Shown: positions 4,029 through 28,135 of the stretch, in pieces
How the letters are laid out: each line of letters opens with the position of its first letter
Position numbering within the stretch: position 1 is the stretch's first letter
Assembly (NCBI GenBank): GCA_007130885.1
Contig: SLRQ01000005.1
Coordinates: forward strand, 5,542-69,541
From: Deltaproteobacteria bacterium
GTDB taxonomy: Bacteria; Myxococcota; Myxococcia; SLRQ01
Direction: 5' to 3'
DNA length: 64,000 nt
The notes under the pieces: model-generated
The model's database searches: none
Seen by the model: the letters and a program-made list of their open reading frames with translations, nothing else
Told to the model about the DNA's origin: nothing
Translations under genes and position numbers: made by a program

Positions 4029-6197
4029 GTGTCAATGTCAAGACGAGTTCTCATCATCGATGACGATTTAGCCACGGTGTCCGCGGCGCGGCGTTCGTTG
4101 AAGGCCGTAGGGTATCAGCCGATGGTGGCCGCGAGCCGTGCGGACGCGGAAGCCGCGCTCGAGGACGGCATCGTTGATCTCGTAGTGATGTCACTTGGCG
4201 TCGAAGATGGAAGCGGTCTCGATAGATTCGAGGAGCTAAGGCGGCGCCCCGACATGCTGGTGCTACCAGTCTTGTTGATAGGCGATGGTACCGGGAATGT
4301 GTGCGATGAGGATTCCGCGGTCGAGTACGGTGCTGATGGTTACGCGGGCAGTCCGGTTGATTGGAAGGCTCTCGCAGAGGGTTTAGGCTCGTATTTCGGT
4401 GAGGGCGATCAAGATACTGCCCAGGAAGAGCATGACCTGGGGTTTTCGCTCGGCGGCCATGACGATCTCCAGAGCGGTGTTGCGGCACAGGCTGGGGCGG
4501 CCGGTAAGTCCGGCGACTGGGGAGCTAAGGTCTTGGAGGCCGACTGGCGCACCGTCAAGTGCAGCACGCCCAAGGAGAATCGGCTTGGCGGCGGATGGGG
4601 GAGCCAGGGCCTCGATGGAGAGATCGAGCTGGCTGCGCAAGAGCAAGAAGGTTTCTCTCCAAGAGCTGGGCGCCTCCCTGACGTAGTCGATGAGGAGGTG
4701 GGCCGCACAGTGGTGAGCGTGGGCGGAGCTGGTAGGGAGGCGACGGAGCGGGATCCGATCGAGGACACCGCGCTCGAGGATCCATCGATGGAGGACACCG
4801 TGCTCGAGGATCCATCGATGGAGGACACCGTGCTCGAGGATCCATCGATGGAAAACGAACTCGACACTTCGGTGGAGGACGAGACCGACTTCGGTGACCT
4901 CATGCTGGGCGAAGATGAAGATGTACCCTCTAAAACCATGACCGGCGAGGAACAGGCATCTCCCGTGGGGGCCGCGGAGCCGCAAGGCGCTTCGGAGAGC
5001 ATGGCGGAGGACGAGACGGACTTTGGTGATCTCTTCTCGGACGAGGAATACGTCGAGGCTGGTGATTCTCCAGAGGAGCGCGTGGCATCTCCGAAACCCG
5101 GTGAGGTCGGCGTTCCCAGCCGGGTCGGCCAAGCTCCGTCGATGCCCGCCATGCCCCCCGAAGGCGATCTCTCGAATATGGATGTCCCGCATCTTCTCGC
5201 CAAGGCCTGGCGGTGCAGGGCGACCGGAGCACTTCAACTGGAGAGCCCGGCCGGAAGGAGGCAGGTGCACTTCGAGAACGGGCGCCCCGTGGCTTTCATG
5301 ACCGAGGTAGGTGAAGAGCAGCTATACGAGGTGGCTTTGCGCCTGGGGATAGTGACACCCGAGCAGGCCGAGAAGGTGGCCGGCGGGTCTCGCTCCGCCA
5401 GAGAGCAGGCAGGCAAGCTGGTTGAGCTTGGAGCAATGAAGCCGGGCGAGGTCTTCGATACGGTGCGTGCCGCGGCGCATGCCGCTCTGTTTGGGGCTTT
5501 TTCGGACCAGGCGGGAAGCTGGGTGTGGTCCGAGGGCGAGAAATGCCCGGCCGAGCTACGGGTAGAACTTCCCGAACACCCGTATGCGCTGATAGCCGAA
5601 GGCGTTCGAAGGAAGCTGTCTCTCGACGCAGTGTCGTCTCGTCTAGGCGGGCCCTCCGCGATACTCGAGACCTCGGAGGACATGGAACTCGAGTTGCTCG
5701 AGCTTGGCTCCAGGGAACGAAGATTGGCGAAGAAGATCGACGGAAACACCAAGGCCGGGGATCTTGTCTTCGAATCGGGGCTGGGAGAGGAGGGGACTTA
5801 CCAGACCTTGTATAGTTTGGTTGCCTCGGGGCAGGCGGTGGTCAGGGAGCACGATTCCGCTACCCAAGGACGGCGGCCAGCTAACGATGAGCGCCTGGCG
5901 GACGTGGCCATTGATCGAAACAGGGCACTGGAGAAGTTCAAGCAGGTGCTTGGAGGTAACCATTTCGAGATTCTCGGTGTTCACCCGCGGGCGACGTCCT
6001 ACGAGGTTCATGTGGCCTATGACCGACTGTCTCGGCTCTTCGGTTGGGACACTTACGGTAGTGACGAGTTCAAGGATCTTTGGGACAAAGTAGAGGAGAT
6101 TCGCGCCGCCTTGGATGACGCGCGCGACGTGATTGGCTCCGACAGCTCTCGGGCGGACTACCTAGAGGAGCTACGGGCAAGAAAGACGGGCCTCTGA
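4029..6197 (+). CDS. response-regulator receiver - DUF4388/PATAN - C-terminal J-like domain protein with acidic repeat linker
   Basis: N-terminus RVLIIDDDLATVSAARRSLKAVGYQPMVAASRADAEAALEDGIVDLVVMSL is a CheY-like receiver. The middle MDVPHLLAKAWRCRATGALQLESPAGRRQVHFENGRPV matches DUF4388. The C-terminus HFEILGVHPRATSYEVHVAYDRLSRLFGWD resembles a J-domain helix II/III, but no HPD tripeptide is visible. A long D/E-rich repeat region lies in between. Confidence 0.75.
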   Translation: MSMSRRVLIIDDDLATVSAARRSLKAVGYQPMVAASRADAEAALEDGIVDLVVMSLGVEDGSGLDRFEELRRRPDMLVLPVLLIGDGTGNVCDEDSAVEYGADGYAGSPVDWKALAEGLGSYFGEGDQDTAQEEHDLGFSLGGHDDLQSGVAAQAGAAGKSGDWGAKVLEADWRTVKCSTPKENRLGGGWGSQGLDGEIELAAQEQEGFSPRAGRLPDVVDEEVGRTVVSVGGAGREATERDPIEDTALEDPSMEDTVLEDPSMEDTVLEDPSMENELDTSVEDETDFGDLMLGEDEDVPSKTMTGEEQASPVGAAEPQGASESMAEDETDFGDLFSDEEYVEAGDSPEERVASPKPGEVGVPSRVGQAPSMPAMPPEGDLSNMDVPHLLAKAWRCRATGALQLESPAGRRQVHFENGRPVAFMTEVGEEQLYEVALRLGIVTPEQAEKVAGGSRSAREQAGKLVELGAMKPGEVFDTVRAAAHAALFGAFSDQAGSWVWSEGEKCPAELRVELPEHPYALIAEGVRRKLSLDAVSSRLGGPSAILETSEDMELELLELGSRERRLAKKIDGNTKAGDLVFESGLGEEGTYQTLYSLVASGQAVVREHDSATQGRRPANDERLADVAIDRNRALEKFKQVLGGNHFEILGVHPRATSYEVHVAYDRLSRLFGWDTYGSDEFKDLWDKVEEIRAALDDARDVIGSDSSRADYLEELRARKTGL
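4761..4850 (+). repeat. 3 x 30-bp perfect/near-perfect tandem repeat inside CDS (encodes EDT[A/V]LEDPSM x3)
   Basis: gaggacaccg[c/t]gctcgaggatccatcgatg is repeated head-to-tail three times. It is in frame with the 4029..6197 CDS. Confidence 0.9.
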
Positions 6198-6365
6198 TCG
6201 GCTCGCTCCCCGCGGCGGGCTAGCGCCCGCATGCGGATAGTCAGGAGGGCGTACCGGAACTTACGGAGGAGAGGGGTCGGTTTCAAACCGGCGCGCCGGC
6301 TTTGCACGTCTTGGCCAGGTTCCTATACTGTCGCGGTTCCTCTCGCTTTTTCGGGGATTATTCCC

Positions 6366-6878
6366 ATGGCCGTTAGAGACATAGTCATTTGGCCGGACAA
6401 GTGCCTCAAGGACAAGGCGGAGCCGGTATCCGTCTTCGATGAGTCCTTGCAAGATCTGCTCGACGACATGCTTGATACAATGTACGCGGCTGACGGCATC
6501 GGCCTTGCGGCTCCCCAGATAGGAGTGAGCCTACGGGCCTTTGTTGTCGATCCGGGTGCCAGGGAGGGTCCCGCCGAGCCTCGTTTCTTCATCAACCCCG
6601 AGGTCGTGGAGGCGGAAGGAGAGATATGGTTCGAGGAGGGCTGTCTCTCGGTTCCCGGCGAGGTCGTCGAGGTGAAGCGATATACGAGCGTCAAGATGCG
6701 GGCTCTCGGCGGAGACGGAGAGCCTTTCGAGATAACAGCGAACGATCTGCTTGCCATTGCTCTCCAACACGAGCTGGACCATATCGACGGCATGCTGATC
6801 GTGGACAGGCTTTCGACAATAAAGCGAACTCTCGTAAAGAAGAGGATGCGGGATCTGAAAGAGGGCCGGCAAGCATGA
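6366..6878 (+). CDS. def: peptide deformylase
   Basis: GIGLAAPQIG, EGCLSVPG and HELDHIDG metal-binding motifs. ATG at 6366 preceded by GGGGA; the ORF-track start at 6231 is an extension. Confidence 0.85.
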   Translation: MAVRDIVIWPDKCLKDKAEPVSVFDESLQDLLDDMLDTMYAADGIGLAAPQIGVSLRAFVVDPGAREGPAEPRFFINPEVVEAEGEIWFEEGCLSVPGEVVEVKRYTSVKMRALGGDGEPFEITANDLLAIALQHELDHIDGMLIVDRLSTIKRTLVKKRMRDLKEGRQA

Positions 6879-12973: not shown

Positions 12974-14329
12974 CTAATATACCGCCTCCAGCTCGACGTG
13001 GGGTATGGCGCGTCGCTGGAGCGGGCGCAGGCACTCGCCGGCGGCGCCGTCGGACTCTATCTCGCATCCGGCCATGGGCATTGGCGGCACGACCACGAAC
13101 CGCGTTCTAAAGGCCCACACCGATTCGATTCTCTCTGATCCGAGCCCGAAACCCTTTCCGGCGCGCTCGGGAGGGCGCATTCTCGAAAGAGCGCCTTGTA
13201 CGGTTGATCGCGCCAGCTCATCGTAGCCGGGCTTTCCGGAGGAACGTTCGATCTCTACACGGATCAGCCCGCCGTTGGGTGCCTGTACCACGCGAAGGAG
13301 CGCCACCAGCTCCACGCCTCCCGCGCGTCCGCTTGCCATGTCCCTGAACAGGGTGTGCTGCATCGCCGCACGGGCCATGTCCACGCGGCTGTCGTCGCGG
13401 GCGAGCGTTCCCGATGGCGCAATAGGCTTTGCCAATAGATGATGAGAGCCAAGCGAGGAGCTCTCGCCCTCTCGGTAAGGACTGCCGGTCTCTCCGTAGC
13501 GTTCCAAAGTCTTCTGATAGTCGCGCAGCCAGGCGCCGAGGTCCGCGATGAGCCCTTCCTTCGCTTGCTCGTCGAGGTGCTCCCACCCTGGATCCATATC
13601 TTCCTCGAAGCTCTCTCGAAGGCGCACGAAGTATGGGTCGACAAGACCGGTCTTCACCCGGTGCCTGGCCTTGTCGTCACGCACCATGCCCGCCAGCCGT
13701 TCCTCGGCCAGGGCCGCTCGCTCCTCGGGCGGCTCACTTGGAAGTGCTTGGAAGGTCTCGCCGGGATCGGGGCCATCCAACGTCTCGGCCTCCGTCTCGG
13801 CCGCAAGCTCCGAGAGCACGCTTGAAGGGAAGGGATCGATTGGCTGCTCCGGCGATTCCGGCGCATCGCTTGCGAGAGGAGGTGTGCCCTCTTCGGCATC
13901 ACGCTCCGGCGCCAAGGCGGGTTCCTTCTCGTCGATGGAGCGGTCTTCAGCGCGTTCCTCGGGCTGCTTGCCGGCGAGAGGGCGCTCTTCCGGTCTTTCC
14001 TTCCGGGGCGATCTTTCGTCTCTCTTCACTGCCCCTGCCGCTCCTGATCGCCCTGCTTTCTTCTCCGCCGTCTCGAGATGGGGCTCATCCTCGCTGGAGC
14101 GATCCTTCATGGGCTCCAGCCCCTCGGGTGATGTATCCCGAGGGTGCTCCTCCAGGTATATGGTGGCTATCGTTTGGTCCTCGGCCTCTGTCTTGCGGGT
14201 CTCTCCAATGGGGACGAGAAGCAGCAACCCATGGAGCGCGACGGATGCAAGGACGGCCATGACTATCCACCGGCCGCGTTGCTGTGCGGTTTTGCGAGCG
14301 CCCATGATCTTCTCTAGCTCCCGCCCCAA
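12974..14329 (-). CDS. TonB-family energy transducer-like protein (N-terminal anchor, E/P/R-rich spacer, TonB_C-like domain)
   Basis: N-terminal TM helix WIVMAVLASVALHGLLLLVPI, a long charged Pro/Glu/Arg-rich linker, and a C-terminal LIRVEIERSSGKPGYDELARSTVQGALS resembling the TonB C-terminal domain. No exbB/exbD adjacent. Confidence 0.45.
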   Translation of the reverse strand: MGRELEKIMGARKTAQQRGRWIVMAVLASVALHGLLLLVPIGETRKTEAEDQTIATIYLEEHPRDTSPEGLEPMKDRSSEDEPHLETAEKKAGRSGAAGAVKRDERSPRKERPEERPLAGKQPEERAEDRSIDEKEPALAPERDAEEGTPPLASDAPESPEQPIDPFPSSVLSELAAETEAETLDGPDPGETFQALPSEPPEERAALAEERLAGMVRDDKARHRVKTGLVDPYFVRLRESFEEDMDPGWEHLDEQAKEGLIADLGAWLRDYQKTLERYGETGSPYREGESSSLGSHHLLAKPIAPSGTLARDDSRVDMARAAMQHTLFRDMASGRAGGVELVALLRVVQAPNGGLIRVEIERSSGKPGYDELARSTVQGALSRMRPPERAGKGFGLGSERIESVWAFRTRFVVVPPMPMAGCEIESDGAAGECLRPLQRRAIPHVELEAVY

Positions 14330-14433
14330 ACTTAGCCTGCTTTTGCGTCCGCGTCACCTGCTGTACCGCCCGCCCGCGGGTACTCACGGTTCATGATCCT
14401 ACCTCCCGGCCTTGTTTGTTCGTCTCTTGTCCG

Positions 14434-14837
14434 TGAAGTTACGAGTGGACCCGGCCGGTGGTGTCGGTCTCGATCCGCGGGCTCCGCACTTCGCCACCGC
14501 CAGGTATGCCTACTCGGCATCCGCCGGTTGACGGTGGGCTCGTGGGTGCGCCTCGCGTCTCGAGACCGACGACCCCCGGCCTACTCGGTCATCTCGTGCC
14601 TTTGAGGTTACAGGTAGACCCGGCCGGTGGTGTCGGTCTCGATCCGCGGGCTCCGCACTTCGCCACCGCCAGGTATGCCTACTCGGCATCCGCCGGTTGA
14701 CGGTGGGCTCGTGGGTGCGCTTCGCGTCTCGAGACCGACGACCCCCGGCCTACTCGGTCATCTCGGGTCCTTGAAGTTACCGGTTTGACCCGGCCGGTGG
14801 TGTCGGTCTCGATCCGCGGGCTCCGCACTTCGCTGTC
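14434..14837. repeat. tandem array, 2.3 copies of a ~169-170-bp unit; each unit an extended imperfect hairpin
   Basis: GACCCGGCCGGTGG anchors at 14448, 14617 and 14787 give a period of 169/170. Copies 1 and 2 are ~98% identical; copy 3 is ~50 bp and then diverges. Within a unit, GTCGGTCTCGA near the 5' end pairs with TCGAGACCGAC near the 3' end, and a small central hairpin ATGCC-tactc-GGCAT is present. The period is not a multiple of 3. Confidence 0.85.
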
Positions 14838-14839
14838 CC

Positions 14840-14884
14840 ACGAAAAAGCCCCCGGCACGAGCGGCCCGAAGGCGCCGTGCCGGA
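14840..14884 (-). terminator. rho-independent terminator downstream of the 14909..18256 lipoprotein gene
   Basis: Minus strand reads CCGGCACGgcgccttcgggccgctCGTGCCGGGGGCTTTTTCG, a 9-bp GC stem followed by a T5 tract. A second perfect mini-hairpin CGTAAGtgcgCTTACG lies at 14897-14912. Confidence 0.55.
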
Positions 14885-14908
14885 GGCGGTGACTACTCGT
14901 AAGTGCGC

Positions 14909-17900
14909 TTACGGATCTTCCGGTGCCGGAGCGAAGTTCACGCTTGGGTCACTGCCCGTCCAGATACTGATATCCAGGCTGCTCTGGTAGATGCCGGCCG
15001 GTGGATCATCCCAGAACGGGTTGAAATGGGCTAAGGTGCACACCATGAACTGCACGTGGCTGCCGGCAAGGGCGTTATAGTTATGCGCTGCCATCAACCG
15101 ATTGTGGCTGTTCCAGTATGGCGTGTCGTCCCAGGTCCTATTCGTCACATCTCGGCAGACGCCGTCCTCGTTACAGAACATGCTCCACCACTCCATTTGG
15201 TTTTGCGTCTCCGCCCAAATGTCGAACCTTGTCCTGAGACTCGATCCGCTTTCCGGCAGGTAGAACCATGGCGTGGTAAGGCAGCTCCCCTCGTTTGCAT
15301 AGGCATAGCCTCCGAGGTGAGTGCCCCAGGCCCTGCTGTTGAATTTTCCGGTAACGCCCGACGGGCCGTAGGTGGGCGTGCCCCACTCCCAGCTACTGCT
15401 TCGGCCGTCGAAGGGGGTATCCGGAGTCATGCCGCCGTCGTTTCCTTGGAAGTCGGCTTGATACAGCGGCTGCGTGCCGCCGAAGCCCTCGAAGGAAAGG
15501 CCGGTGTTGTCGGTGTCGCGAGCCGTGAACCGGGTTTGTGAGAAGGTGTCGGTCGTCAGCTCGACGACCACGCGCCCGTACTCGGTCTCGACGTAGACTA
15601 TTCTGGCACCCTCACCCTCGATGATGCTTCCCTCGACGGCCGCGGTGAAGCGAGCTCGGTCCCATGTTTCCTCGAGTGTGAAACGGACCGGATCGGAGTC
15701 CTCCACCAGGTGGCCGAAGGCATCCTGGAGCTCGATCTCCAGCTCCACCGTCTCGTCTCCCGCCTCGGGCTGGTCGATAGGAAGCAGCACCAGCCTTGCA
15801 GGCACGGATGGTTCCGCGGAGGCCACGAACTCGACGGGATCCAGCTCGAAGTCGCAGCCGGTACTCAGCTCGGCCTCGAGCATGTTGTTGTCATCCCCGG
15901 CATCCGGGCCGAGCCGCCACCAATTGACGAAAGCCTCTCCATTCTGGTTCGTGTTCGACCATCGCCCCCAACCGGGGTGGCCTTCGACCTCACCGCCGCC
16001 CTCTTCGACACTCCATTCAACCCAGAGGCCCGGTATCGGCAGGCCGTCTTCATCCTCGACCCTGACTCCCACCGTCTCGGGCAGATCCTGACCTGCCACG
16101 CCGGCGAGCGGACCGTCATTCAGCGCCACGAAGGAGACGGGGTCGCCTGTGAACCGGCGAGCCGTCGTCGCGGAGTCGTCGAGGCCGACGCTCTCATCCT
16201 CGAGCGATAGGGTGACCAGCTCCGCGTTCTCGTTGGTCATTCTAACCTCGGCGCCGAAGTACCACTGCCCTCTCTTGCTGAAGAAGGTGCCTTCCATGAA
16301 GATCGAGGGGAGGCCTCCTCCTCCTCCGACGACGATTCCCCTCTCGCCCGTTCTATCGATTAACTCTGGCGTATCTTCGCCGTCACCTTCGGCGTGTATC
16401 CAGAACCGCGGCTTGTCCGGGCCGTCGGGATAAGCCGCGTTGCCAAGCTCGTCGCGCATGACGACGAGGACATCGATGTTTCCGCCGCGCTTTGAGTCCT
16501 TGTGCGCGTTGCCGCCACCGGCCCCCTCGAGCAGGCGAAGGAAAGCAAGCTCCACAGGAGGACCGGGGTTGAAGTCCACCGTTACGTCGTCCCACCTGGC
16601 CTGCATCGGTCCGGGGAAGCCTTCGATCTCGAGCCCTATCAGGCCGTCGATCATGATCTCACCCGAGAGTTCGGTCGCCAGCTCGATCTCGGCCAGGCCG
16701 CCGGAGACCTGCAACACCACTTCGGTTGTTCCGCCGCCGTCTATCACCGTGCCGGTCTCGGCCTCCTCGGCAAATGTGGCGGGACTGTGGCCGATGAGCG
16801 TCACCTCCATCTCGTCTTCCCAGCTTACGATGTTGCCGTACTGATCGTGAACGAACGCCGTCAACATGAAAGGCTCGAGCACGCTTGCTTCCTCGAGATC
16901 TTCATGGTCGAAGCGAATGCCGGCGATTCCTTCGGCGATGGCGGTTGCGGAAAACTCGATCTCGGCTATGGACCAGTTCTCGAAGTCCCACTCGCCGAGT
17001 TCGGTCGTATCCAGCAGGGCGCCAAGCAAGATGTCTCTCGGGCCGGCCACGTCGTTGAACCTTATGGAAGCAAACGCCAGGCCGTTCTCGTTGGTATGGT
17101 CATCCTCGAACAATATGTCGTCGTCCCAGGGGTGATCCTCGTCGTATGGCCCGGACACCATCATGGGGCCGACGGGAACTCCGGGGATGGCTTGCCCGGC
17201 CGAGTTGACGGCTCTGAACACCATGGGCTGCTCAGTCCGCCGTGTTACGGGCGCTTCCTGGTCGTTGCCCGCGACAAGCTCCAGCTCGTGCGCGCCTTCA
17301 GCGGTGACCATCACCGTGTCGGGCCTGCCGCAGATCTCGAAGTCGCAAGGATAAGCGGCGATCTCGTACTCCCCTTCCTTGTCGATGCGCAAGGTCGGCG
17401 TCATTTGTTGGTTTCCGTCGAGCCAAGTATTGGACCCTTCGGGTGCGGACAGTATTACCCACTCGAGCCAGAAGGGCCCGCCTTCCGGGTGGAAGGAGCC
17501 GGTGCCGTCGAGCTGGACTGTCGTTTGGTTCCAGAACATGCCGGGGGCGGGAGCCATCATGTCGTCGCCGGCGTCCGCGACGGGGTTTCTGGTGAAGGTT
17601 GTGGGATCGCCATCCGCTTGCACTCGCACGCGGTCGCGGGCGGCGCCGACCTCGTTGGTCGCGGTAAGCTCGATCAAGTACTCGCCGGCCCTGTCGGCCA
17701 GGAACCAGGGAGTCAGGGAGGTGGCCGCCGACAGCTCTGCCTTGCTGCCCTCGGGCACCGATACGAAGTGCCACGCCACGGTGAAGCCGTTTTCGGAAGG
17801 ATCGGTCACGTCGCCGACTAGCTGCGCGATCTCGTTGGTTTCGACGCTCTGGTCCTCACCCGCGTCCGCGGTGGGCAGCATGGCCATCTCAATGTGCTCG

Positions 17901-18256
17901 CCGGCCGCGGTGACCGTCACGTCGGCCTTGCCGATGCGCTCGTCTTGCTCGACCTCGAGCTCGAGTACGTAGTCGCCCTCCGTATCGGCGACGAACCAAG
18001 GGGTGAGAGTGTCGGCTGCGGTGAGCTCGGCCAGGCTGCCGGCTGGAGCCTGTACGATGCGCCAACCGATGGTTATTGGATCGTCCTGGTGCAAATTGAC
18101 GGAGCCTTCAAGTCCCACTAACTCGCCGGTGACGACCTCTTGGTCTTCACCGGCGTCTACTTCCGGTGCTTTGGCGCAGCCGCCGAGTGCCAATAAAGCG
18201 GTTAGCGCAATGGTAAGCGCTCCAAAACCGACACGCTTGGTAAACATGCATTTCAT
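14909..18256 (-). CDS. large cell-surface lipoprotein with multiple PKD-like repeats and an uncharacterised Cys/Trp-rich C-terminal domain
   Basis: ATG at 18256 preceded by GGGAGGGAG. Signal MKCMFTKRVGFGALTIALTALLALGGCAK with lipobox. Repeated ADAG[E/D]DQ.V......L.G....P....W..V..P.GS modules typical of PKD domains. The C-terminal ~250 aa (…GYAYANEGSCLTTPWFYLPESG…FCNEDGVCRDV…) has no obvious family. The 18257-18616 extension in the ORF track is unlikely to be translated. Confidence 0.7.
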   Translation of the reverse strand: MKCMFTKRVGFGALTIALTALLALGGCAKAPEVDAGEDQEVVTGELVGLEGSVNLHQDDPITIGWRIVQAPAGSLAELTAADTLTPWFVADTEGDYVLELEVEQDERIGKADVTVTAAGEHIEMAMLPTADAGEDQSVETNEIAQLVGDVTDPSENGFTVAWHFVSVPEGSKAELSAATSLTPWFLADRAGEYLIELTATNEVGAARDRVRVQADGDPTTFTRNPVADAGDDMMAPAPGMFWNQTTVQLDGTGSFHPEGGPFWLEWVILSAPEGSNTWLDGNQQMTPTLRIDKEGEYEIAAYPCDFEICGRPDTVMVTAEGAHELELVAGNDQEAPVTRRTEQPMVFRAVNSAGQAIPGVPVGPMMVSGPYDEDHPWDDDILFEDDHTNENGLAFASIRFNDVAGPRDILLGALLDTTELGEWDFENWSIAEIEFSATAIAEGIAGIRFDHEDLEEASVLEPFMLTAFVHDQYGNIVSWEDEMEVTLIGHSPATFAEEAETGTVIDGGGTTEVVLQVSGGLAEIELATELSGEIMIDGLIGLEIEGFPGPMQARWDDVTVDFNPGPPVELAFLRLLEGAGGGNAHKDSKRGGNIDVLVVMRDELGNAAYPDGPDKPRFWIHAEGDGEDTPELIDRTGERGIVVGGGGGLPSIFMEGTFFSKRGQWYFGAEVRMTNENAELVTLSLEDESVGLDDSATTARRFTGDPVSFVALNDGPLAGVAGQDLPETVGVRVEDEDGLPIPGLWVEWSVEEGGGEVEGHPGWGRWSNTNQNGEAFVNWWRLGPDAGDDNNMLEAELSTGCDFELDPVEFVASAEPSVPARLVLLPIDQPEAGDETVELEIELQDAFGHLVEDSDPVRFTLEETWDRARFTAAVEGSIIEGEGARIVYVETEYGRVVVELTTDTFSQTRFTARDTDNTGLSFEGFGGTQPLYQADFQGNDGGMTPDTPFDGRSSSWEWGTPTYGPSGVTGKFNSRAWGTHLGGYAYANEGSCLTTPWFYLPESGSSLRTRFDIWAETQNQMEWWSMFCNEDGVCRDVTNRTWDDTPYWNSHNRLMAAHNYNALAGSHVQFMVCTLAHFNPFWDDPPAGIYQSSLDISIWTGSDPSVNFAPAPEDP

Positions 18257-21185: not shown

Positions 21186-22016
21186 TCAGCCCAGAACATA
21201 AGGCCGCCCGGTTTCGGGCTCGGTTCCGGCAACCAGTGGAGTTTGATAGACCTCTTCGAGAACGTCCGGGCGCAGGACGGACAAAGGTGGTCCTTCGGCG
21301 GCTATTGCTCCCTCGTTCAACAGCAGAAGCCGATCGCAGGTGCTCGCCGCGAGGTTGAGATCGTGCAAGACCACCAGCACCGCGATTCCTCGCTCCTCGA
21401 CGCGCTTGCGTAGCGCTTCGAACAGTCGCCGGCGGTGGCGCAGGTCCAGATGAGCGGTCGGCTCGTCGCAGAGCAGGATTCGGGGGTCCTGCGCCAGTGC
21501 GCGCGCTATGAAAGCTCTTTGCCTCTCGCCGCCTGACAAGCGGTCGACAGGCCGGGTCGCCAGATCCTCCAGATCCATCTCTGAAAGAATCTCTCGCACA
21601 AGCGCGATGTCGCCGGCCCCTTCCAAACCGAGACGTCCCAGGTGAGGAGCCCGGCCCATCAACGCCAGCTCTTCCACGGTGAACGAGAAGGGAACGCTCA
21701 GGTCCTGCGGAACCAGAGCTGTTTTTCGCGCTAGTTCTTTGCGGGACCAGCTTGCGAGGCTCCTGCCCGACACGAGACACTCTCCTTCATCGGCCGTCAG
21801 CAGGCCGGCGCAGACTCTCAACAGTGTTGACTTGCCCGCGCCGTTTGGGCCAACGATTCCGACCATCTCTCCCCCGGCGATTGCGGCACTGACGGTGTCC
21901 AACACCAGGTCGCCTCCGCGGGTCCAGCGAAAACAGACTTCGCGAAGCTCGAGGACGGTTTCGCCGGGGGCTCCGCGGGGCTTCTCGACCGGTGCCGCTT
22001 CCGTTCCCTCTCTCAT
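21186..22016 (-). CDS. btuD: ABC transporter ATP-binding protein of the cobalamin/iron-chelate uptake family
   Basis: Walker A GPNGAGKSTLLR, LSGGERQR signature, Walker B ILLCDEP. Last gene of the riboswitch-controlled operon. A 4-bp overlap with the upstream permease gives translational coupling. Confidence 0.8.
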   Translation of the reverse strand: MREGTEAAPVEKPRGAPGETVLELREVCFRWTRGGDLVLDTVSAAIAGGEMVGIVGPNGAGKSTLLRVCAGLLTADEGECLVSGRSLASWSRKELARKTALVPQDLSVPFSFTVEELALMGRAPHLGRLGLEGAGDIALVREILSEMDLEDLATRPVDRLSGGERQRAFIARALAQDPRILLCDEPTAHLDLRHRRRLFEALRKRVEERGIAVLVVLHDLNLAASTCDRLLLLNEGAIAAEGPPLSVLRPDVLEEVYQTPLVAGTEPETGRPYVLG

Positions 22017-23206
22017 CGCGCCCTCCTACTGGACCCTCGACGAAGCAGGACCAGGAAAAGGGGCGCCCCAATCAAAGCGGTGACCGCTCCAACGGGAGGC
22101 TCCGTGCCCACGGGGATGAAGGCGAGCCTTGCGGCGAGATCACAGCAGGCGAGGAATGCGGCTCCGCCCAGGATGGAGGCCGGCAGCAGCAGCCTGTGAT
22201 CGGGTCCAAGCACGAGGCGGAGCATGTGCGGCACCACAAGGCCCACGAAACCGACCAGTCCCGCCAAGCTGACCGTTGCCCCTATCATCAAGGAAATGAC
22301 CACGACCAGCTCCAGGCGCGTCCTGTCCACGTCCACGCCCAGGCTGGCCGCGCTCTCCTCTCCAAGGGAAAGGAAGTTGAGCTTGGACGCGTTTGCCACC
22401 AAGAACCCGATGCCGGCAATTACGATGACCGCACCAACCGCGATGTGTGACCAGGGTTTGTGCGCCAGGGTTCCCACCAGCCAGGGCAGAAGAGCGTGAG
22501 CTTGCTCGGGTGTCACCAGCGTGCGCAGGAACAATATGACCGCGGCGGCGAACGCGTTGAAAACGACGCCCGCCAGGAGCAGAGCGTGCGGGTCTAGACG
22601 CCCGGCCGGACGAGCTATCCAGAGCATCAGCATCGTGGTCGTAAGTGCTCCGACGGCGGCGGCCAATGATATGGGAACCGCTCTGTACCACCCGCCCGCC
22701 TCGGCGGATTCGCCGATCGCTAGAGTATCCGCGCCGGTCAGCACTTGCCCCAGAGCCGTTGTGGACAGAAGGGTTGCGGCCAGGATGGCAAGCGTTGCGC
22801 CGAGGGCCGCTCCTCCGCTGACGCCCAGAACGAAGGGATCGGCGAGTGGATTCCTCAGTATTGCCTGGAGCGTGGCGCCGGCGCCTCCCAGCGCACCGCC
22901 GACCAGCAGACCAAGAACGAGCCTGGGCAAGCGAACTCCGGCGACGATGGTGTGGTCAAGTGAGCCCGATGTGAGAACCATTCCAAGCCGTACGGGCCGG
23001 ACGCCGAGTAACAGGGCCAGCGACGCCACCGCCAAGACCACGACACCGAGAGCGAGAAGACAAAAAGCCCACTTGCGGGGCGTAAGCCTCGTTCTTTCTC
23101 GAGAGGTCCTCTTTCCGGCTTGCATGTCTTTTTTCGGAACGTCTTTGCTCCGATAATCCTGATCGGCCGGCCGCGTGGCATTCGGCTGGGAGTGGCGGGG
23201 GGTCAT
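22013..23206 (-). CDS. btuC: FecCD-family ABC permease (cobalamin/iron-siderophore type)
   Basis: Polytopic membrane protein of FecCD/BtuC family length. Translationally coupled on both sides. Confidence 0.75.
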   Translation of the reverse strand: MTPRHSQPNATRPADQDYRSKDVPKKDMQAGKRTSRERTRLTPRKWAFCLLALGVVVLAVASLALLLGVRPVRLGMVLTSGSLDHTIVAGVRLPRLVLGLLVGGALGGAGATLQAILRNPLADPFVLGVSGGAALGATLAILAATLLSTTALGQVLTGADTLAIGESAEAGGWYRAVPISLAAAVGALTTTMLMLWIARPAGRLDPHALLLAGVVFNAFAAAVILFLRTLVTPEQAHALLPWLVGTLAHKPWSHIAVGAVIVIAGIGFLVANASKLNFLSLGEESAASLGVDVDRTRLELVVVISLMIGATVSLAGLVGFVGLVVPHMLRLVLGPDHRLLLPASILGGAAFLACCDLAARLAFIPVGTEPPVGAVTALIGAPLFLVLLRRGSSRRAR

Positions 23207-24309
23207 TCCTTGATGGCTCGGCCTCTGTCCCAGGCTAGGGTAGCGGCTAGGATTTCCTCTCTTGCCTCCGGATGCAATGCCGTGAGCACCTGGAGGGCGG
23301 AGGCCGGAATGGCGGGGCCGGGACGGAGCAGGGCATTGCCGGGTATTTTGGTGTGTCTGGTGCCCTCCATCCGAGGCAAGGCCTCCGCCTTTCCGTCCGC
23401 CAGCATGGCGGCCTCGATGATTACATCCGGTTGCTGCGATATCAAAAGCTCGAGAGGGTAAGCAGGGTAAGGCGTACCAGCGCTCCTTGCTATGTTCTCG
23501 CCACCGGCCAGCGAGAGCAGCTCGTCGCCGAAAGAGCCCGGCCCGGCAAGAACGAGAGGATCCCTTCCGTAGATAATGGCTGCTCTCGGTGGGTCCCTGT
23601 CCGATGCCGCCTCCTTGATTGTTTCCAGAGCCGCGTCGAAAGAGGCTACGAGCGCTCTTGCTTCATCATGACGTCCGATCCTCGAGCCGACCGCGGAAAT
23701 CGCGGTTCTGGCGCCGGCCACGCCGCCGTGTGGCACCACCAGCACCGGAATGCCCAGCTCTGCCAGGCGTTTCACCGATTCTCGATTGCCTGGGCTTGGC
23801 TCGGCGATGACGAGATTGGGCCTTGTCGCCAAGACCGCTTCCAGGCTCGGGTCGAGAAAGCCCCCTATGCGCGGCACCGACCGGGCGCTGGGGTGATCAC
23901 AAAAGCGGGTTACGCCAACTAGAAGCTCGGATGCTTCCAGGGCCGCCACGATGTCCGTCATCGCAGGGGAGAGGGTGACTACCCGGGAAGGGTTGGCTTC
24001 AGGCGACGGACCCATCATGTAGGGCTCGGCGCTAGATGGTCGCTCGTCCTTGGGTTCCGGCTTGGAGTGTTCGTGCTTCCAGTTTACGGCATTCTCGTCA
24101 AGCGACGTCGCGGCTTCTTGGTCCAGGCATGAAATCGAAAGGGTCGCCGGCAACATCGCCACAAGCAAGATATGAAGAGCGAGCCGGCGCCTTCGGTGAG
24201 AGGCTCCGCGAGCGAATATAGGCTCGCTCGACGCGCGCTTGCACCTTGCAAGGCGGATGAGTGCCTTGCATCTAGGCGCGCCCATTAGCGCCATGGGGCC
24301 ATTGTTCAT
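23203..24309 (-). CDS. btuF: periplasmic substrate-binding protein, cluster A (BtuF/TroA-like) cobalamin-binding
   Basis: VVTLSPAMTDIVAALEASELLVGVTRFCDHP is typical of BtuF-like class III SBPs. N-terminal signal/anchor. Confidence 0.7.
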   Translation of the reverse strand: MNNGPMALMGAPRCKALIRLARCKRASSEPIFARGASHRRRRLALHILLVAMLPATLSISCLDQEAATSLDENAVNWKHEHSKPEPKDERPSSAEPYMMGPSPEANPSRVVTLSPAMTDIVAALEASELLVGVTRFCDHPSARSVPRIGGFLDPSLEAVLATRPNLVIAEPSPGNRESVKRLAELGIPVLVVPHGGVAGARTAISAVGSRIGRHDEARALVASFDAALETIKEAASDRDPPRAAIIYGRDPLVLAGPGSFGDELLSLAGGENIARSAGTPYPAYPLELLISQQPDVIIEAAMLADGKAEALPRMEGTRHTKIPGNALLRPGPAIPASALQVLTALHPEAREEILAATLAWDRGRAIKE

Positions 24310-25499
24310 GGGCTCTCCGCCTCAATCTCGATGATCGCCACGATGCCGTGCCCCGCGGGCTGCATGTCTTCGTCCATATTGTTCAAAGCGACGAGCGCCC
24401 GGCCGTCGCCCGTCAATGCGACTCCTTGAGGAAGAGCGCTGGGCTTCATTTCGCCCAGCGGCAGCAGATCCTCGCCGGACGGCAGACCGGCGCGGGCGAC
24501 GATCCCTCCGGCGTCGAGATCGACCAATACAAGCTCATTCATAAGCCACAAGGTCACGAGGACCTCGTTCCTCGACAGCAGGGCGAGGCTCATTGGGTTG
24601 GTGCCGTTGCCGAGGAAAACCTCATGGGTCGTGGCGGCGGATGGATCCGCGTTGAGGTCGAGCACCTGCAGGGTTTGCGATGTCGAGTTCACGACAAGAG
24701 CCCTGTCCTCGTCGATGATTATGTCGTTTGGAGTCTCGCCTAGCTGCCAGTGAAAGGGGGTGGCCTCCATGTCGCCCTCGAGATCCACCAAGCTCGCGGT
24801 GCCTGCGAGCCCGTCGAGCACGATGGCTTTCTCCTCACCCCATCTAGCGAGAGAGCCGGCTCCGTCTCCCGCGGTTACTCGGCTGGAGATTACCGCGTTG
24901 CGCGCATCGTCCTCCTCCGCGCCCGGCTCGAGACGGAAGCGGACCACTTCGGAGCTCGAGAAACACGAGGCCAGTATCTCATCTTCCGGAGATTCGGCCA
25001 GACCGGCTATGGACTGGAAAAGATTCTCTTCGAAGTTCGAGGGGCATAGAACGACAGGGTCCTCGTGATCGTGAATTATGTCTCCGAGAAGGTCTGTTAC
25101 GAACACCCGGCCGTCCGAGCCATCCGCTATCACCAGTACTTCTTCGAAGACCTTCATGGCTCCGGGCATGCCGCCAAGATGCGTGGACTCCGCGATGGAC
25201 ATATCCGACAGATCTATGATGACTAGGCGACCCTCATTTTCGCCCCATGTTCCGCCGCAAGTGACGTAGGCCATGTCTTGATAAACGGTGATGTAACCGG
25301 GAACCAGGCAGTCCGGCCCAAGATCAATCACCTGCGTCAGCTCCATTGTCCTTGCGAGCTCTTCTTCGTCGTTACCGTTCGCCGCAGGCTCGCCGCAGCC
25401 CAGGACGAAGAAGAGTGCGGTCGAAGCGGCCACGGCCGCCGCGACCCAGCGGCGGCTAATTGAAACGAGAAAGTGAGGAGCGGTCAATTCGAAGTTCAT
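24306..25499 (-). CDS. YVTN-type beta-propeller lipoprotein embedded in the B12 uptake operon (BtuG-like candidate)
   Basis: Lipoprotein signal ...ALFFVLGCGEP. Six or more repeats of the hydrophobic-strand pattern (YVTCGG..GRLVIIDLSD; LVIADGSDGRVFVTDL; AIVLDGLAGTASLVDLEG; ALVVNSTSQTLQVLDLNA; VLVTLWLMNELVLVDLDAG; ALVALNNMDE), characteristic of a beta-propeller. 4-bp overlap with btuF. Confidence 0.55.
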   Translation of the reverse strand: MNFELTAPHFLVSISRRWVAAAVAASTALFFVLGCGEPAANGNDEEELARTMELTQVIDLGPDCLVPGYITVYQDMAYVTCGGTWGENEGRLVIIDLSDMSIAESTHLGGMPGAMKVFEEVLVIADGSDGRVFVTDLLGDIIHDHEDPVVLCPSNFEENLFQSIAGLAESPEDEILASCFSSSEVVRFRLEPGAEEDDARNAVISSRVTAGDGAGSLARWGEEKAIVLDGLAGTASLVDLEGDMEATPFHWQLGETPNDIIIDEDRALVVNSTSQTLQVLDLNADPSAATTHEVFLGNGTNPMSLALLSRNEVLVTLWLMNELVLVDLDAGGIVARAGLPSGEDLLPLGEMKPSALPQGVALTGDGRALVALNNMDEDMQPAGHGIVAIIEIEAESP

Positions 25500-25536
25500 G
25501 TGAGTCTCCGGGGGAAAGTTGAGTAGGGAAGGCGGG

Positions 25537-27749
25537 TCAGCCTTGCAGATTGACAACGAAAAAAGCGGTTCTTCCGGGCAGTGGGTATCCGTAAAGATCT
25601 TCCAGACGGCGATCGTTCAAGAGATTCGCAACGTGAAGCCCGACGGATAGGTTTCGCCGGATTCCTACTTCGGCGCCTGCTCCGAACAGGGTTCGGCCGG
25701 GTATGGAACGTGTGTTTGCCCTGTTTCTTGGGGCGGAGGACTGGACCTCGAGATCACTGTTGATATCGAGCCTCCCGATGCTCGCGGTCACTCCGGCGAA
25801 GCCTCGATGTCTCGGCCGGTACGGAAGCGTTTGCCCGTGGACGTTGGGCTTCGGCGATAGGTTGACGGCATCGGTCAGGGTATAGGCGCACGATGCCGAC
25901 AGCCAATCGGTGGGTCGCCATTTCGCCTCCGCCTCGAGACCTCTAGTCAACGCTTCTCCCACGTTGAACGGCCGCAGACGCAGAGGAGGGAAGAGTTCAT
26001 AGGTTATTAGGTCTCGATATCGGCTGTGCCATCCCATCACTCGCAAATGAACCTGGTCTTGCGCAAGCTCGACTCCTCCGTCGAACGTGACGGCCGACTC
26101 CGGCTGGAGCTCATCGTTGTTGGCGATGAGCGCCGTTGATCCATGAAGCTCGAAAAGGGTGGGCATGCGCACGCCTCTGCCCACGTTGGCTGACAGCACA
26201 ATGGATGCGGGAAGGGTGATATTCGCGCCGAATCGTGGAGAGAGTGTCGCAGGGTGGCCGCCGAAGGCGTCGAGCCTGATGCCGCCGTGCAGTGTCAAAA
26301 GGTCGTTTGCGAGAAAAGCCGTGTCGGAGACGAGCAGTGAGGCCGCCGGCCGAGTGGTTGCCGCCCCAGTGCCCGATAGCATTTCCATGCTGGCTTCACC
26401 GGAGATCTGGAGAGCCGTGCCGGCCACCAGGGCTTCCGCGGAGCTTCGCAAACCGATTACTCGGCGAGAGTTGGTAAAGGGGCTGCCCAGGCCGGGCGCG
26501 GGGTTCTCGCCCGGCTCATACTCATAGCCGTCGCCGGACATCCACGTAGCGGCGCTCCAACGGACGGACCTGTTGCCCACGGGATCGGAAGTGAAAATGC
26601 CGCCAAGAAGCGACCGTGTCGTGTCGCTGGTCGCCCCCGGTGATGGAAAGCCGACCATGCCGGCAACATCTCTTCGGTTCTTGTGTCCGAAGGCCGTAAT
26701 CTGAAGATGGCCGCCGCTCGCCGGTACCGAAGTCGACAGGATGCCGGAGCCCGAGAGCAGATTGTTGTTATCGCGTTCTTGGGTGGACCAGCTTGCGTCC
26801 GGTATGTTCGGGGTCAACAATCTTTCATACTCGAAGGTACCGCGAGAGGCATAAAGATCGATGCCGGCCGCCGCTCGGACGTTGCCGTCGGTTCCCCTCC
26901 AACCGGCAGCGGTACCGACGCTCTCGAGGCTGTCGCCCCGCGCGGTCAAGGAGCGTTTCGGCTCGAGATCATGGGATGCGCCGGGCGTCAAGGGATTCAG
27001 ATGCAACACTCCGCCCAGAGCTCCCGCTCCGTGTATTGCCGCCTCGGTGCCTCTTGTCACCACCATGCTCTCCAGAAGACTGGGTGGTACGGCGGACAGA
27101 TCGACCGCGCCTCCCCCCGGCGGAGTGATCGGGAGACCGGCCAAGGTTACGACCACCTGATCCGCCGCGGAGCCTCGAATGGAAGCAGTGATCGGTGATC
27201 CGGGCGCTCCACTTCGCCTGAGCGTTACACCGGGGGAACGAGAAATGGCCCTGCCGATGTCTATGGTGGCCCTGTCGGCCCCGCCGATCTCGATCTTGGT
27301 TGCGGCCGATGTTGGCGAGGCTTTATCGGCGGTGTCTCGGTGCACGCCGGCCGCGGTAACGTCTATCGTGGGAGCTTCCAGGACCGTCGTGCCCGAGCGC
27401 TCCCCGCGTTCATCGTCACCGGAAGTCTCATCATCGCTTTCCGTAACGTCGTTGTCATTCTCGCTTGCAGGATCGACAGGCTCGATGCTCGCTGCTTCGG
27501 AAGACTTCTCTTCATGCGCCGCGTCGTCCGCCTTCAGCGGCGAAGCAGTGCCGAGAAGTAATGACGCTGCCGCCAGGAGGGCAAGACGAGCGGAAAGCGA
27601 GGCTGGAAGATCTTCTAGCCGGCCTGCAGACGCTGGAATAGGTAAAGGCCCCGGTCCGGCTTCCTCATGGCTCCATTCCGGCCTACGCCGGAATGACAAT
27701 AGGGGCGCTGTTGCCGCCTTGCCTCGTGTCCCGCTGAACCGGATTTCCA
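25537..27749 (-). CDS. btuB: TonB-dependent outer-membrane receptor, cobalamin-type
   Basis: Plug domain (…GAPGSPITASIRGSAADQVVVTLAGLPI…) and a C-terminal beta-barrel. Immediately downstream, in transcript sense, of a cobalamin riboswitch. The start is ambiguous: the signal-like h-region LALLAAASLLLGTASPLKA lies ~50 aa after the first RBS-supported ATG at 27749. Confidence 0.8.
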
Positions 27750-27814
27750 TTTTTGGCTGCCTCTTTCGACCGAAGAGTCGAGCCACGACGCCCGTGAGGA
27801 TGTCGTCGCACATG

Positions 27815-28005: not shown

Positions 28006-28135
28006 AGCACCTGCAGCCTCTATTCGAATTGCGGGCACCGTAAATGAAGGTATCTTCGGATGTCAACACCTTCAGTGAATCCCAAATCGTCGGGTGTCTG
28101 TCTCGAGTGGCGTAGGCGGTATGCGGTGAGCGGCG

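Follow-up and report, generated by a model that had tools for sequence, protein, structure and literature searches.

The intergenic region and its flanking genes

We analysed a tandem array of long palindromic units that lies between two genes pointing in the same direction, within a 64-kb stretch of DNA that we call the window (Table 1). The gene upstream of the array encodes a large PKD/Big_1-domain protein, the product of which is 1115 aa as called on public contigs; its longest open reading frame extends to 18616. The surroundings are those of a housekeeping chromosome: neither the window nor the 9 kb beyond it encodes a transposase, RAYT or integrase. The window also encodes a TonB-dependent receptor, a YfiO-family outer-membrane lipoprotein and DUF4388/FHA proteins, the first two of which make an outer membrane likely. 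The only Rfam match in the whole window is a Cobalamin riboswitch at 27805-28029.

Table 1. Features of the array and its surroundings, in window coordinates.
Feature	Position	Strand	Composition	Basis
Downstream TonB-like gene	12974..14305	-		ORF and Pfam
Shine-Dalgarno and 20-codon candidate uORF	14332..14407	-	GGGAGGT at 14407-14401, then uORF	sequence
Possible decayed in-register remnant	14404-14429	none	right end of unit	in-register comparison; repeat extends to 14405
Copy 1, 169 nt	14430-14598	none	linker J1, then palindromic core	TRF, folding, copy alignment
Copy 2, 170 nt	14599-14768	none	linker J2, then palindromic core	TRF, repeat search, copy alignment
Partial copy 3	14769-14833	none	linker J3 and first ~48 nt of left arm	repeat-family search, copy alignment
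Hypervariable linkers, ~20 nt	J1 ~14428-14447; J2 14597-14616; J3 ~14766-14786	none		copy alignment
Intrinsic terminator of upstream gene	14843..14887	-		sequence and fold
Upstream gene, large PKD/Big_1-domain protein	14909..18256	-		ORF list, Pfam PKD-type domains, ENA contig gene call

A first reading of the sequence only had placed a strong terminator at the boundary of the array, and we find there a canonical intrinsic terminator of the minus strand. It consists of a 12-bp GC-rich stem, GCCUCCGGCACG...CGUGCCGGGGGC (14848-14887), with an inner UUCG-loop helix, followed on the same strand by UUUUU at 14843-14847, and it folds, flanks included, at -44.4 kcal/mol (z -3.6). A simple terminator scanner missed it because its loop is longer than 8 nt. 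The only ortholog of the upstream gene (contig L089, 47% identity) keeps a similar terminator, CCGGGGGC..TTTCGT, and is followed by a different downstream gene.

The protein encoded downstream of the array is membrane-anchored, with a linker rich in Pro and Glu and, at its C-terminus, a marginal TonB_2 domain. The label TonB-like comes from that marginal Pfam match, which scores 23.4 bits against a cut-off of 22. The start of this gene had been set at 14329, where a TTG opens the longest reading frame; the ATG at 14305 is the likelier start. Among 5.8 billion proteins it has one or two homologs, and the homolog that we compared is 52% identical, is not syntenic and is preceded by an unrelated 98 nt. 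The array had likewise been said to fill the entire gap between the two genes, whereas a unique leader of ~100-125 nt separates it from the TonB-like start. This leader includes a short reading frame (14332-14394; ATG at 14394, stop at 14334-14332; predicted peptide MNREYPRAGGTAGDADAKAG) that lacks codon runs and is, on its sequence, an unproven candidate gene. No conserved counterpart of this uORF lies upstream of the sole homologous downstream gene compared.

Anatomy of the array

The tandem array of ~170-bp units described in the sequence-only reading was borne out. TRF reports one array here, at 14434-14833, with a period of 169, 2.4 copies, 94% matches and a score of 721. Likewise, a 27-mer of the left arm occurs exactly three times and a 25-mer of the right arm twice, where shuffles lead one to expect 0. 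The apical hairpin of copy 1, ATGCC-TACTC-GGCAT, lies at 14506-14520. Partial copy 3 ends abruptly, 9 nt short of the U-tract of the terminator. At the opposite end, the segment 14404-14429 may be a decayed remnant of a unit, a weak assignment that comes from setting its ACCTCCCGGCCT...TCGTCTCTTG in register against the ACCCCCGGCCT...TCATCTCGTG of the unit; on the minus strand this segment overlaps the Shine-Dalgarno sequence of the uORF. With the exception of this weak in-register resemblance, unanchored local alignment of the flanks and the terminator to the unit did not rise above shuffles.

The array had been judged not to look coding, and our results agree with that judgement, since its period is 169 and a pseudo-protein translated from the tandem unit in six frames, searched against 5.8 billion proteins in order to catch spurious reading frames on other copies, found no match. 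We therefore rejected a coding unit: at that period, its reading frames (53-80 aa) are Arg-rich, overlap one another on both strands and have no homologs.

Copies 1 and 2 differ at 10 of 170 alignment columns, giving an overall identity of 94%. The previous estimate of ~98% is too high for the unit as a whole and holds for the core alone (99%), the ~149-nt cores being 99-100% identical between copies. Nine of the 10 differences fall within the ~20-nt linker (P about 1e-6 by a conservative binomial), and the sole core substitution is a C/T difference at 14552 versus 14721. The three linkers are only ~70-80% alike, around a conserved GTTAC; J2 departs from J1 at 4 of 18 positions, adjoining more than 100 identical bases. 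Clustering of this kind calls for extra assumptions, either that synthesis at the joints is error-prone or that only the cores are homogenised. This uneven divergence of cores and linkers bears on concerted evolution inside very short arrays.

If this were a plain recent duplication, the differences would be spread evenly and the joint would be a clean flank chimera; the array shows neither pattern. Because GTTAC is present in every linker, we considered an IS200/IS605-type insertion 3' of TTAC and rejected it, as it is the bases adjoining TTAC that vary and no Y1 transposase gene is found in the window or the 9 kb beyond. We also rejected DGR-type mutagenesis of the linkers, given that the changes are not adenine-specific and that the window has no RT.

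The number of copies differs between assemblies. Over 6 kb, the MAG contig SKJR01000010.1 departs from the window only in lacking exactly one 169-nt unit. This shorter contig could reflect either true variation in copy number or a collapse during assembly, which look the same here because there are no flanking SNPs. The window has another tandem repeat, of 30 nt at 4756-4852, whose length likewise varies between assemblies by exactly one unit. The 2.4-copy form with joints J2 and J3 recurs in three ENA assemblies (ERZ27301261, ERZ27301262 and ERZ27301263).

These comparisons bear on the possibility that metagenome assembly produced the array, or its copy number, as an artefact, with strain variants placed in series or a graph loop over-walked. 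The source is indeed a k=141 de Bruijn metagenome assembly, independent contigs break within the array, and one MAG has 1.4 copies where the window has 2.4. However, the core (149 nt) and the distinct linkers make nearly every 141-mer copy-specific, and the J2 and J3 joints are found in the source of the window as well as in contigs of the three ENA assemblies. The shortest version still holds 1.4 units (arm, reverse arm and partial arm), and the flanking sequence is unique and runs colinearly with a 145-kb contig. We consider an artefact very unlikely. As a practical warning, the locus breaks or collapses in short-read assemblies, and its copy number as assembled differs among MAGs of the same population.

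Folding potential of the unit

The unit had been described as a long imperfect palindrome that would fold into an extended stem-loop, and folding of a single unit confirms this. It forms one extended hairpin at -99.3 kcal/mol as minus-strand RNA (z -7.1), at -94.1 kcal/mol as plus-strand RNA (z -4.8) and at -48.8 kcal/mol as DNA (z -4.65), and in each case none of 200 shuffles folds as well. The minimum free energy structure contains ~58 pairs, including a perfect 11-bp helix, GTCGGTCTCGA/TCGAGACCGAC. The best inverted repeat of the unit is internal (11 bp perfect, 17 bp at 88%). Its arms are ~65% complementary, with 15 non-wobble mismatches and 1 wobble. Copy 2 folds at -86 to -87 kcal/mol on either strand, and both registers and strands fold about equally, at -87 to -97 kcal/mol when centred on the unit and at -73 to -92 kcal/mol when centred on the junction. 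Wobble pairs are not enriched and neither strand is preferred in the fold of the unit, which is a DNA-level palindrome without an RNA strand signature. No other part of the window folds as strongly on the minus strand as the array does (z -3.5 to -4). The 10-mer GCCTACTCGG is unpaired twice per unit, in the apical loop and in a bulge, which neutral amplification does not predict.

The array could be a functional structured RNA of the minus strand, acting either as a cis-regulatory leader of the TonB-like gene, the registers of which would free or sequester the Shine-Dalgarno sequence of the uORF, or as tandem sRNA genes. Beyond the strength of the minus-strand fold, the location of the array is suggestive, as it lies in a gene leader, ahead of a uORF whose Shine-Dalgarno sequence, GGGAGGT, is perfect. 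If left unpaired, the last 3' arm is predicted to pair with this sequence and with the start codon, lowering their unpaired probability from 0.65 to 0.31, and the motif CCGAGUAGGC is left unpaired twice per unit. Several observations weigh against such a role, and we regard it as quite unlikely. A strong terminator lies directly upstream and no promoter-like site was found; the units lack U-tracts; the plus strand folds as well, and the minus-strand fold has 1 G-U pair; and the core substitution at 14552 versus 14721 breaks a pair on the minus strand and yields a G-U pair on the plus strand. The core identity of 99% reflects recency or homogenisation rather than readable selection, both related loci do without the array, and one copy fewer is apparently tolerated.

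We searched the whole window against Rfam 15 and found no family matching the array at the gathering threshold. A search of 14300-14950 at E up to 10 returned three chance matches, at 9-20 bits against thresholds of 40-95. These results agree with the earlier view that the array is not a recognised RNA family. 6S RNA, Y RNA, retron msr/msd, bridge RNA and omega RNA were rejected as candidates, there being no Rfam match and no RT, IS110, TnpB or Ro gene in the window. As for a tandem riboswitch or attenuator, there is no Rfam aptamer, the homologous leader is unrelated and the uORF is free of codon runs.

Tandem sRNA genes are known from the NsiR1 array of Nostoc, in which each repeat of the upstream array holds one copy of the sRNA (PMC4030482). 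Arrays of this type (PMC4030482, PMC9045159) resemble ours in that direct repeats lie upstream of a protein gene and form a stable hairpin per unit. In the units, we found no promoter-like or terminator-like site on either strand (14000-15200 scanned, for promoters with the sigma-70-type consensus only), and no U-run follows the unit hairpin in either orientation. In the original description of NsiR1, each copy is reportedly transcribed separately, from a promoter of its own and up to a terminator of its own. The idea of a repeated structured sRNA or cis-regulatory element, raised when the array was first noticed, fits poorly with units that lack a promoter and a terminator, show no strand preference and are not enriched in wobble pairs.

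The palindromic character of the unit could instead serve at the level of DNA, with the array acting as a series of operator-like sites for a protein between the terminator and the TonB-like gene. Each unit does contain short perfect palindromes (GTCTCGAGAC, CCGGCCGG and CCGCGG) at a regular spacing of 169 bp. However, such palindromes follow trivially from a long GC-rich hairpin, no gene next to the array encodes a regulator, no other gene in the window has the sites upstream of it, and the relatives lack the array. A protein-binding array therefore seems to us barely plausible.

Distribution, origin and comparison with known systems

Searched down to ~65% identity (blastn with word size 7; k-mer and repeat searches), the 64-kb window contains no second copy of the unit, and we found none in a further 9 kb of the contig or in the contigs of relatives. 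Likewise, blastn (word size 11) of the unit against 72,556 plasmids and 50,697 phages gave no match. A 20-mer of the arm had 47 matches in 185,579 species genomes, an 18-mer of the loop had 11 in JGI metagenomes, and three k-mers had 0, 10 and 2 in IMG/VR; all are chance matches that reach no more than 32 nt after BLAST extension. The scans of these k-mer collections missed the source locus itself, indicating that the collections do not contain the source sample, so their negatives are hardly informative on the source genome. Neither related locus has the array, whether that of the sole PKD-gene ortholog (47%) or that of the TonB-like homolog (52%). Because the sole ortholog of the upstream gene keeps the terminator and lacks the array, the array appears to be lineage-specific. 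As far as can be tested, the unit occurs here only, with no copy in the collections searched and none at the loci of relatives that could show covariation, as had been proposed for a local duplication remnant.

Two further classes of repeat were considered and rejected. A CRISPR array is made up of 23-50-nt repeats and unique spacers with cas genes nearby; here, the conserved part is ~149 nt, the ~20-nt 'spacers' are mutually homologous, and the window has no cas genes. An integron attC has no Rfam match here and no integrase in the window, and the GTTAC of the linkers misfits the attC core GTTRRRY.

On balance, the anatomy and folding potential of the array, together with the lack of relatives or of any family signature, suggest that it is probably a lineage-specific, non-coding orphan minisatellite of a long palindrome, amplified in place. 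We infer that a ~169-bp segment, comprising a ~149-bp imperfect palindrome and a ~20-bp linker, would have been amplified head-to-tail where it stands. DNA able to form hairpins or cruciforms may stall replication and misalign, slipped or unequal recombination between copies may then add or remove whole units, and this turnover would keep the cores alike while the joints bear its scars. If the array is transcribed with the TonB-like gene, through read-through of the terminator or from an undetected promoter, its effect might be that of REP/BIME- or ERIC-like intergenic hairpins. The transcribed hairpins would be very stable and would have two alternative registers, and they could act passively as an insulator, a barrier to 3'-exonucleases, a target of RNase III or a leader spacer of variable length. 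A dedicated RNA gene or riboswitch is not what these features point to. Most likely, the array, similar in kind to a REP/BIME cluster and apparently a one-off, reflects local DNA amplification rather than a new regulator. If so, it offers a clean example of the amplification and contraction of a long palindrome in bacterial intergenic DNA.

An alternative to amplification in place is that the core (~140-150 bp) is a non-autonomous mobile palindrome of the MITE, REPIN or PATE type, inserted or reiterated several times, with the identical cores as fresh copies of a master element and the linkers as target or flanking DNA. Invariant cores between diverged linkers speak for such an element, as does a long palindrome, imperfect overall but including a perfect inverted repeat of 11 bp. 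The core of copy 2 lies between GTAG (14614-14617) and CTAC (14750-14753) on the plus strand, in the manner of head-to-head REP dimers, and GTAGGCCGG begins the minus-strand arm. REP dimers reiterated in tandem with flanking DNA are known (PMC3733652), and the Logan contig L003, which ends at 14463, 13 nt before the point expected for a unique J1, hints at another type of junction. Yet no second locus was found in about 73 kb of the same chromosome or in any collection searched, and no spurious reading frames of other copies were found among the 5.8 billion proteins. There is no target-site duplication, and conservation is lowest at the outermost ends, the reverse of what terminal inverted repeats show. 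No transposase or RAYT gene is nearby, and the window contains no REP-like k-mer family. GTAG is degenerate in J1 (GTGG) and in J3 (GTTTG), and chance would account for two GTAG in 169 nt. We therefore think a mobile origin unlikely.

A related proposal, which we rate as rather improbable, sees in the ~149-nt core a new long-palindrome element, confined to this lineage and functional in its own right, either as a REPIN-like mobile unit bracketed by GTAG...CTAC that amplifies in tandem or as an RNA leader that switches registers. Selection or active copying would then hold the cores identical while the linkers drift. In the register-switching version, the number of units and the odd partial arm would set whether the last arm masks the ribosome-binding site of the uORF. 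Were copy number to tune expression of the TonB-like gene, the array would be a contingency-type switch built of 169-nt units; were the core dispersed in the genome, it would represent a new family of mobile palindromes in a lineage that has hardly been sampled.

Among known systems, local amplification of a long palindrome resembles REP/BIME clusters most closely. Like the array, these clusters (PMC2817692, PMC3733652) are extragenic and GC-rich, with alternating palindromic arms and two kinds of linker. They too lie between genes of the same direction just past the coding region, form large hairpins on either strand, can be reiterated in tandem along with the DNA beside them and differ between genomes in copy number, as the array may, and the roles proposed for them are likewise passive, namely protection of mRNA 3' ends and effects on termination. 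REPs are 20-40 bp long with stems of 6-13 bp, are present in tens to hundreds of copies per genome and are often accompanied by a RAYT gene (PMC2817692, PMC3733652). The palindrome of the array, in contrast, is ~149 bp (unit 169 nt, ~58 pairs) and was found at one locus, with no REP-like family in the 64 kb, and its arms have no strong short stem-loop of their own. The REP tag, GTAG or CGTC, is unpaired and terminal, beside the stem; on the minus strand of the unit, the basal bulge (GTAGGCCGG...) and the apical loop each contain a GTAG, and the plus strand has one in J2 only, at 14614-14617. Two occurrences in 169 nt, where about 0.5 are expected, are not significant. The original suggestion of a REP/BIME-like palindromic unit caught mid-amplification is the best fit in kind, but the unit is not short, there is no target-site duplication, and neither dispersed copies nor a RAYT gene turned up in the window or the 9 kb beyond.

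ERIC and Correia elements are within the 100-170-bp size class, as is the unit here. Along with RUP and REPINs (PMC3116915, PMC3184786), they share with the array an imperfect palindrome that folds over its whole length, an intergenic location and the capacity to be co-transcribed. These families are dispersed and have conserved ends, often with a target-site duplication, whereas the array is a single locus of head-to-tail units with no such duplication, and its ends are its most variable part. Compared with a MITE, which has conserved terminal inverted repeats and a target-site duplication, its best inverted repeat is internal and no direct duplication flanks the cores. MITEs also occur in several copies at unrelated loci and are related to a parent IS, whereas the sequences that we searched yielded no other locus of the unit. 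VNTRs of the MIRU type are head-to-tail intergenic repeats of tens to about 100 or more bp that lie between same-direction genes and gain or lose whole units between isolates. Mycobacterial MIRUs occupy many loci per genome, often contain small reading frames in phase and are not long palindromes. Both MIRUs and the array are arranged head-to-tail between genes of the same direction, the array may likewise gain or lose whole units, and the array alone is a long palindrome.

Organization of the repeat array and its linkers

The sequence-only reading described head-to-tail palindromic units between the terminator of a large lipoprotein gene (here the gene for the PKD protein) and a TonB-like gene, both on the minus strand, and as a description of the sequence feature this was correct. 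Across the window, Tandem Repeats Finder detected a single array of long period, spanning 14434-14833, with a period of 169, 2.4 copies, 94% matches and a score of 721. A left-arm 27-mer occurs exactly three times and a right-arm 25-mer twice, with none expected from shuffles. In-register comparison places the copies as listed in the table; on the plus strand the order is tail of A', J1, A-L-A', J2, A-L-A', J3 and the first 48 nt of A, where A and A' are arms of ~70 nt each, L is the apical ATGCC-TACTC-GGCAT hairpin and J1 to J3 are linkers of ~20 nt. The array does not fill the whole gap between the genes, as had been proposed, but leaves ~100-125 nt of unique leader before the downstream gene.

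Positions of the array copies and of surrounding features within the window
Feature	Position	Strand	Details
Remnant of the unit's right end	14404-14429		decayed, weak; in-register comparison
Copy 1	14430-14598		in-register comparison
Copy 2	14599-14768		in-register comparison
Copy 3	14769-14833		truncated; in-register comparison
Terminator stem	14848-14887	minus	12-bp GC stem with inner UUCG-loop helix
Terminator U-tract	14843-14847	minus	UUUUU after the stem
Stop codon of upstream gene	14911-14909	minus	precedes terminator
uORF MNREYPRAGGTAGDADAKAG	14332-14407	minus	20 codons
10-mer GCCTACTCGG, two per unit	14508, 14579, 14677, 14748	plus	apical loop and bulge near base
7-mer core CTACTCG of GCCTACTCGG	14893	plus	directly past upstream gene's stop codon
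10-mer GCCTACTCGG, once more	28570	reverse	intergenic region
Cobalamin riboswitch	27805-28029	minus	100.5 bits; ahead of TonB-dependent receptor
TonB-dependent receptor, then unknown 416-aa protein and Peripla_BP_2, FecCD, ABC_tran genes	21186-27813	minus
30-nt coding tandem repeat	4756-4852		3.2 copies, 97% matches
DUF4388/PatA_N-type response-regulator gene	about 4029-6197	plus	contains the 30-nt repeat

The ~98% identity claimed for copies 1 and 2 holds for the core only (99%), the overall value being 94%. The linker accounts for nine of the 10 differing alignment columns and the ~149-nt core for one, a clustering with P about 1e-6 by a conservative binomial. The linkers are homologous: all three share a conserved GTTAC, around which their similarity is only ~70-80%. 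Joining the left part of J3 cleanly to the right part of J1 does not give J2, and copy 3, past its linker, is identical to the other copies. Simple duplication does not explain this clustering. Homogenisation confined to the cores, error-prone synthesis at duplication joints, or separate arrival of identical cores could each have caused it. Only two things invite a second look at the array: how invariant its cores are beside hypervariable linkers, and how many copies the genome has.

We rejected the unit as a coding sequence: its period is 169, and its ORFs are short, overlapping, Arg-rich and present on both strands. A search of 5.8 billion predicted proteins with a six-frame pseudo-protein of the unit gave no match.

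Folding of the unit and the leader of the TonB-like gene

The unit is, as first described, a single long imperfect palindrome that forms a hairpin. Its RNA folds at -99.3 kcal/mol on the minus strand (z -7.1) and -94.1 on the plus strand (z -4.8), its DNA folds at -48.8 (z -4.65), and no shuffle folds as well. When 170-nt segments were scanned along the entire window, none folded more strongly on the minus strand than the array (z about -3.5 to -4), which is also one of the strongest-folding stretches on the plus strand. The palindromic nature of the unit lets A' pair just as well with the A that comes next; hairpins centred on junctions (-73 to -92 kcal/mol) and on units (-87 to -97) are of similar stability on both strands.

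Position and fold strength would favour a functional RNA, as would a motif, CCGAGUAGGC, displayed twice, and a free last arm that in a modelled register effect can mask the ribosome-binding site of a uORF, lowering its unpaired probability from 0.65 to 0.31. We nevertheless consider such an RNA improbable. Arm complementarity is only ~65% (60 matched columns, 15 non-wobble mismatches, one wobble and 16 gap columns), the minus-strand fold holds one G-U pair, and the sole core substitution, C/T at 14552 versus 14721, breaks a minus-strand pair and forms a plus-strand G-U. Neither the arm mismatches, the G-U count nor this substitution provides an RNA-strand signature, and no sigma-70-like promoter or hairpin-plus-U-tract was found inside the units. 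The palindrome is a DNA-level feature. An array of protein-binding sites, for which there is no specific support, is the least probable reading.

A perfect GGGAGGT Shine-Dalgarno sequence, located within the decayed repeat remnant, precedes the uORF by 6 nt, and the uORF stops 2 nt ahead of TTG 14329, the start first assigned to the TonB-like gene, and 26 nt ahead of ATG 14305, the more likely start. No counterpart lies upstream of the only homolog of the TonB-like protein. The TonB-like identity itself rests on a marginal Pfam match. The riboswitch-led genes, which look like a B12 uptake operon, lie about 7 kb from the TonB-like gene.

Genomic setting, relatives and copy number

The host is an uncultured bacterium, probably with an outer membrane. 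The window is ordinary housekeeping chromosome (PriA, peptide deformylase, RND pump, P-type ATPase, AlaRS, Fur, a sigma-70 factor, ClpA/ClpS and others), and it matches ENA contig ERZ27301263:k141_1195989 (145 kb) and pieces of the NCBI MAGs GCA_007129935.1 and GCA_007121905.1. Sampling of this lineage is very sparse. Outside the species, a single homolog of the TonB-like protein is known (52% identity); its gene has other neighbours, and the 98 nt upstream of it are unrelated. For the PKD protein, too, there is just one ortholog (47% identity, in MAG GCA_003561785.1). The strong minus-strand terminator said to bound the array is real, and the ortholog gene ends in a similar one, …CCGGGGGC-GA-TTTCGT, conserved in position and partly in sequence (CCGGGGGC..TTTCGT; 3555-3600 in the ortholog's contig versus window 14843-14887). 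Past that terminator lies no tandem repeat, but unique sequence and a different gene, for a DUF11 protein. The ancestral feature is thus the terminator, directly behind which the array was added later as a lineage-specific element.

If the core were a mobile palindrome (MITE, REPIN or PATE-like), identical cores could have arrived separately; we regard this as unlikely. A second locus is absent from everything searched, there is no target-site duplication (TSD), the ends are the least conserved part, and the GTAG tag is degenerate in two of the three linkers. No transposase, RAYT or integrase occurs in the window. Neither does a further array copy, even at ~65% identity, nor any array 14-mer outside the array; 9 kb of contig past the window and contigs of two related organisms also lack a copy. 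Blastn against plasmids and phages gave no match, and exact k-mer scans (185,579 species, one genome each; JGI metagenomes; IMG/VR) gave chance matches only, of <=32 nt. The scans did not return the source locus itself, and the source sample is therefore absent from those collections. One chance 18-mer match led to three unrelated JGI metagenome contigs (L063, L068 and L071, at about 4790-6400) that carry it four times, once exactly and three times with one mismatch, about 320-770 nt apart, an arrangement that suggests a different repeated element.

Both the window's source and contigs from three ENA assemblies carry the 2.4-copy form together with its copy-specific J2 and J3 joints, and we judge an assembly artefact very improbable for the array as such; the exact copy number could still be affected. 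MAG contig SKJR01000010.1 equals the window over 6 kb minus exactly one 169-nt unit, with the crossover in shared core; in the absence of flanking SNPs, the difference could be either a real loss of one unit in the population or a sequence collapsed by a shorter-k assembler. Several short-read contigs break off inside the array. One Logan contig (SRR7083934_1026067, k=31) ends at 14463, 13 nt short of expectation if J1 were unique in the reads, which hints at a second junction type in the sample with the same right half and another left context, e.g. an extra unit or heterogeneity. The 30-nt coding repeat is exactly one unit shorter in an otherwise identical ENA contig, and is thus a second repeat of this organism with whole-unit differences between assemblies.

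Interpretation and comparison with known repeat families

On balance, we favour the view that the array is an orphan minisatellite without dedicated function, whose whole units are gained and lost. A long imperfect palindrome with its linker would have been amplified in place through slippage or unequal recombination. Should transcripts cover it, whether by reading through the terminator or by starting at a promoter that escaped detection, such a minisatellite may behave like REP/BIME or ERIC elements: its very stable hairpins could act as insulators, as barriers to 3' exonucleases or as RNase III targets, and the TonB-like gene would have a longer leader. These RNA-level effects are inferred from REP-type elements (PMC2817692, PMC3733652).

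No Rfam family matches the array, and no evidence for a new RNA class or system was found. An sRNA array would have a promoter and terminator for each unit, neither of which was found within the units here. REP/BIME clusters and long-palindrome MITEs are closest to it in kind, and intergenic VNTRs in behaviour. Its unit size is not that of a REP, REP-like dispersal was not seen in the window or the collections searched, and the window holds no RAYT gene; unlike a MITE, it has neither conserved ends nor a TSD. As far as these comparisons go, the array belongs to none of the REP/BIME, MITE or intergenic VNTR families, but is a new orphan example of a kind already known.
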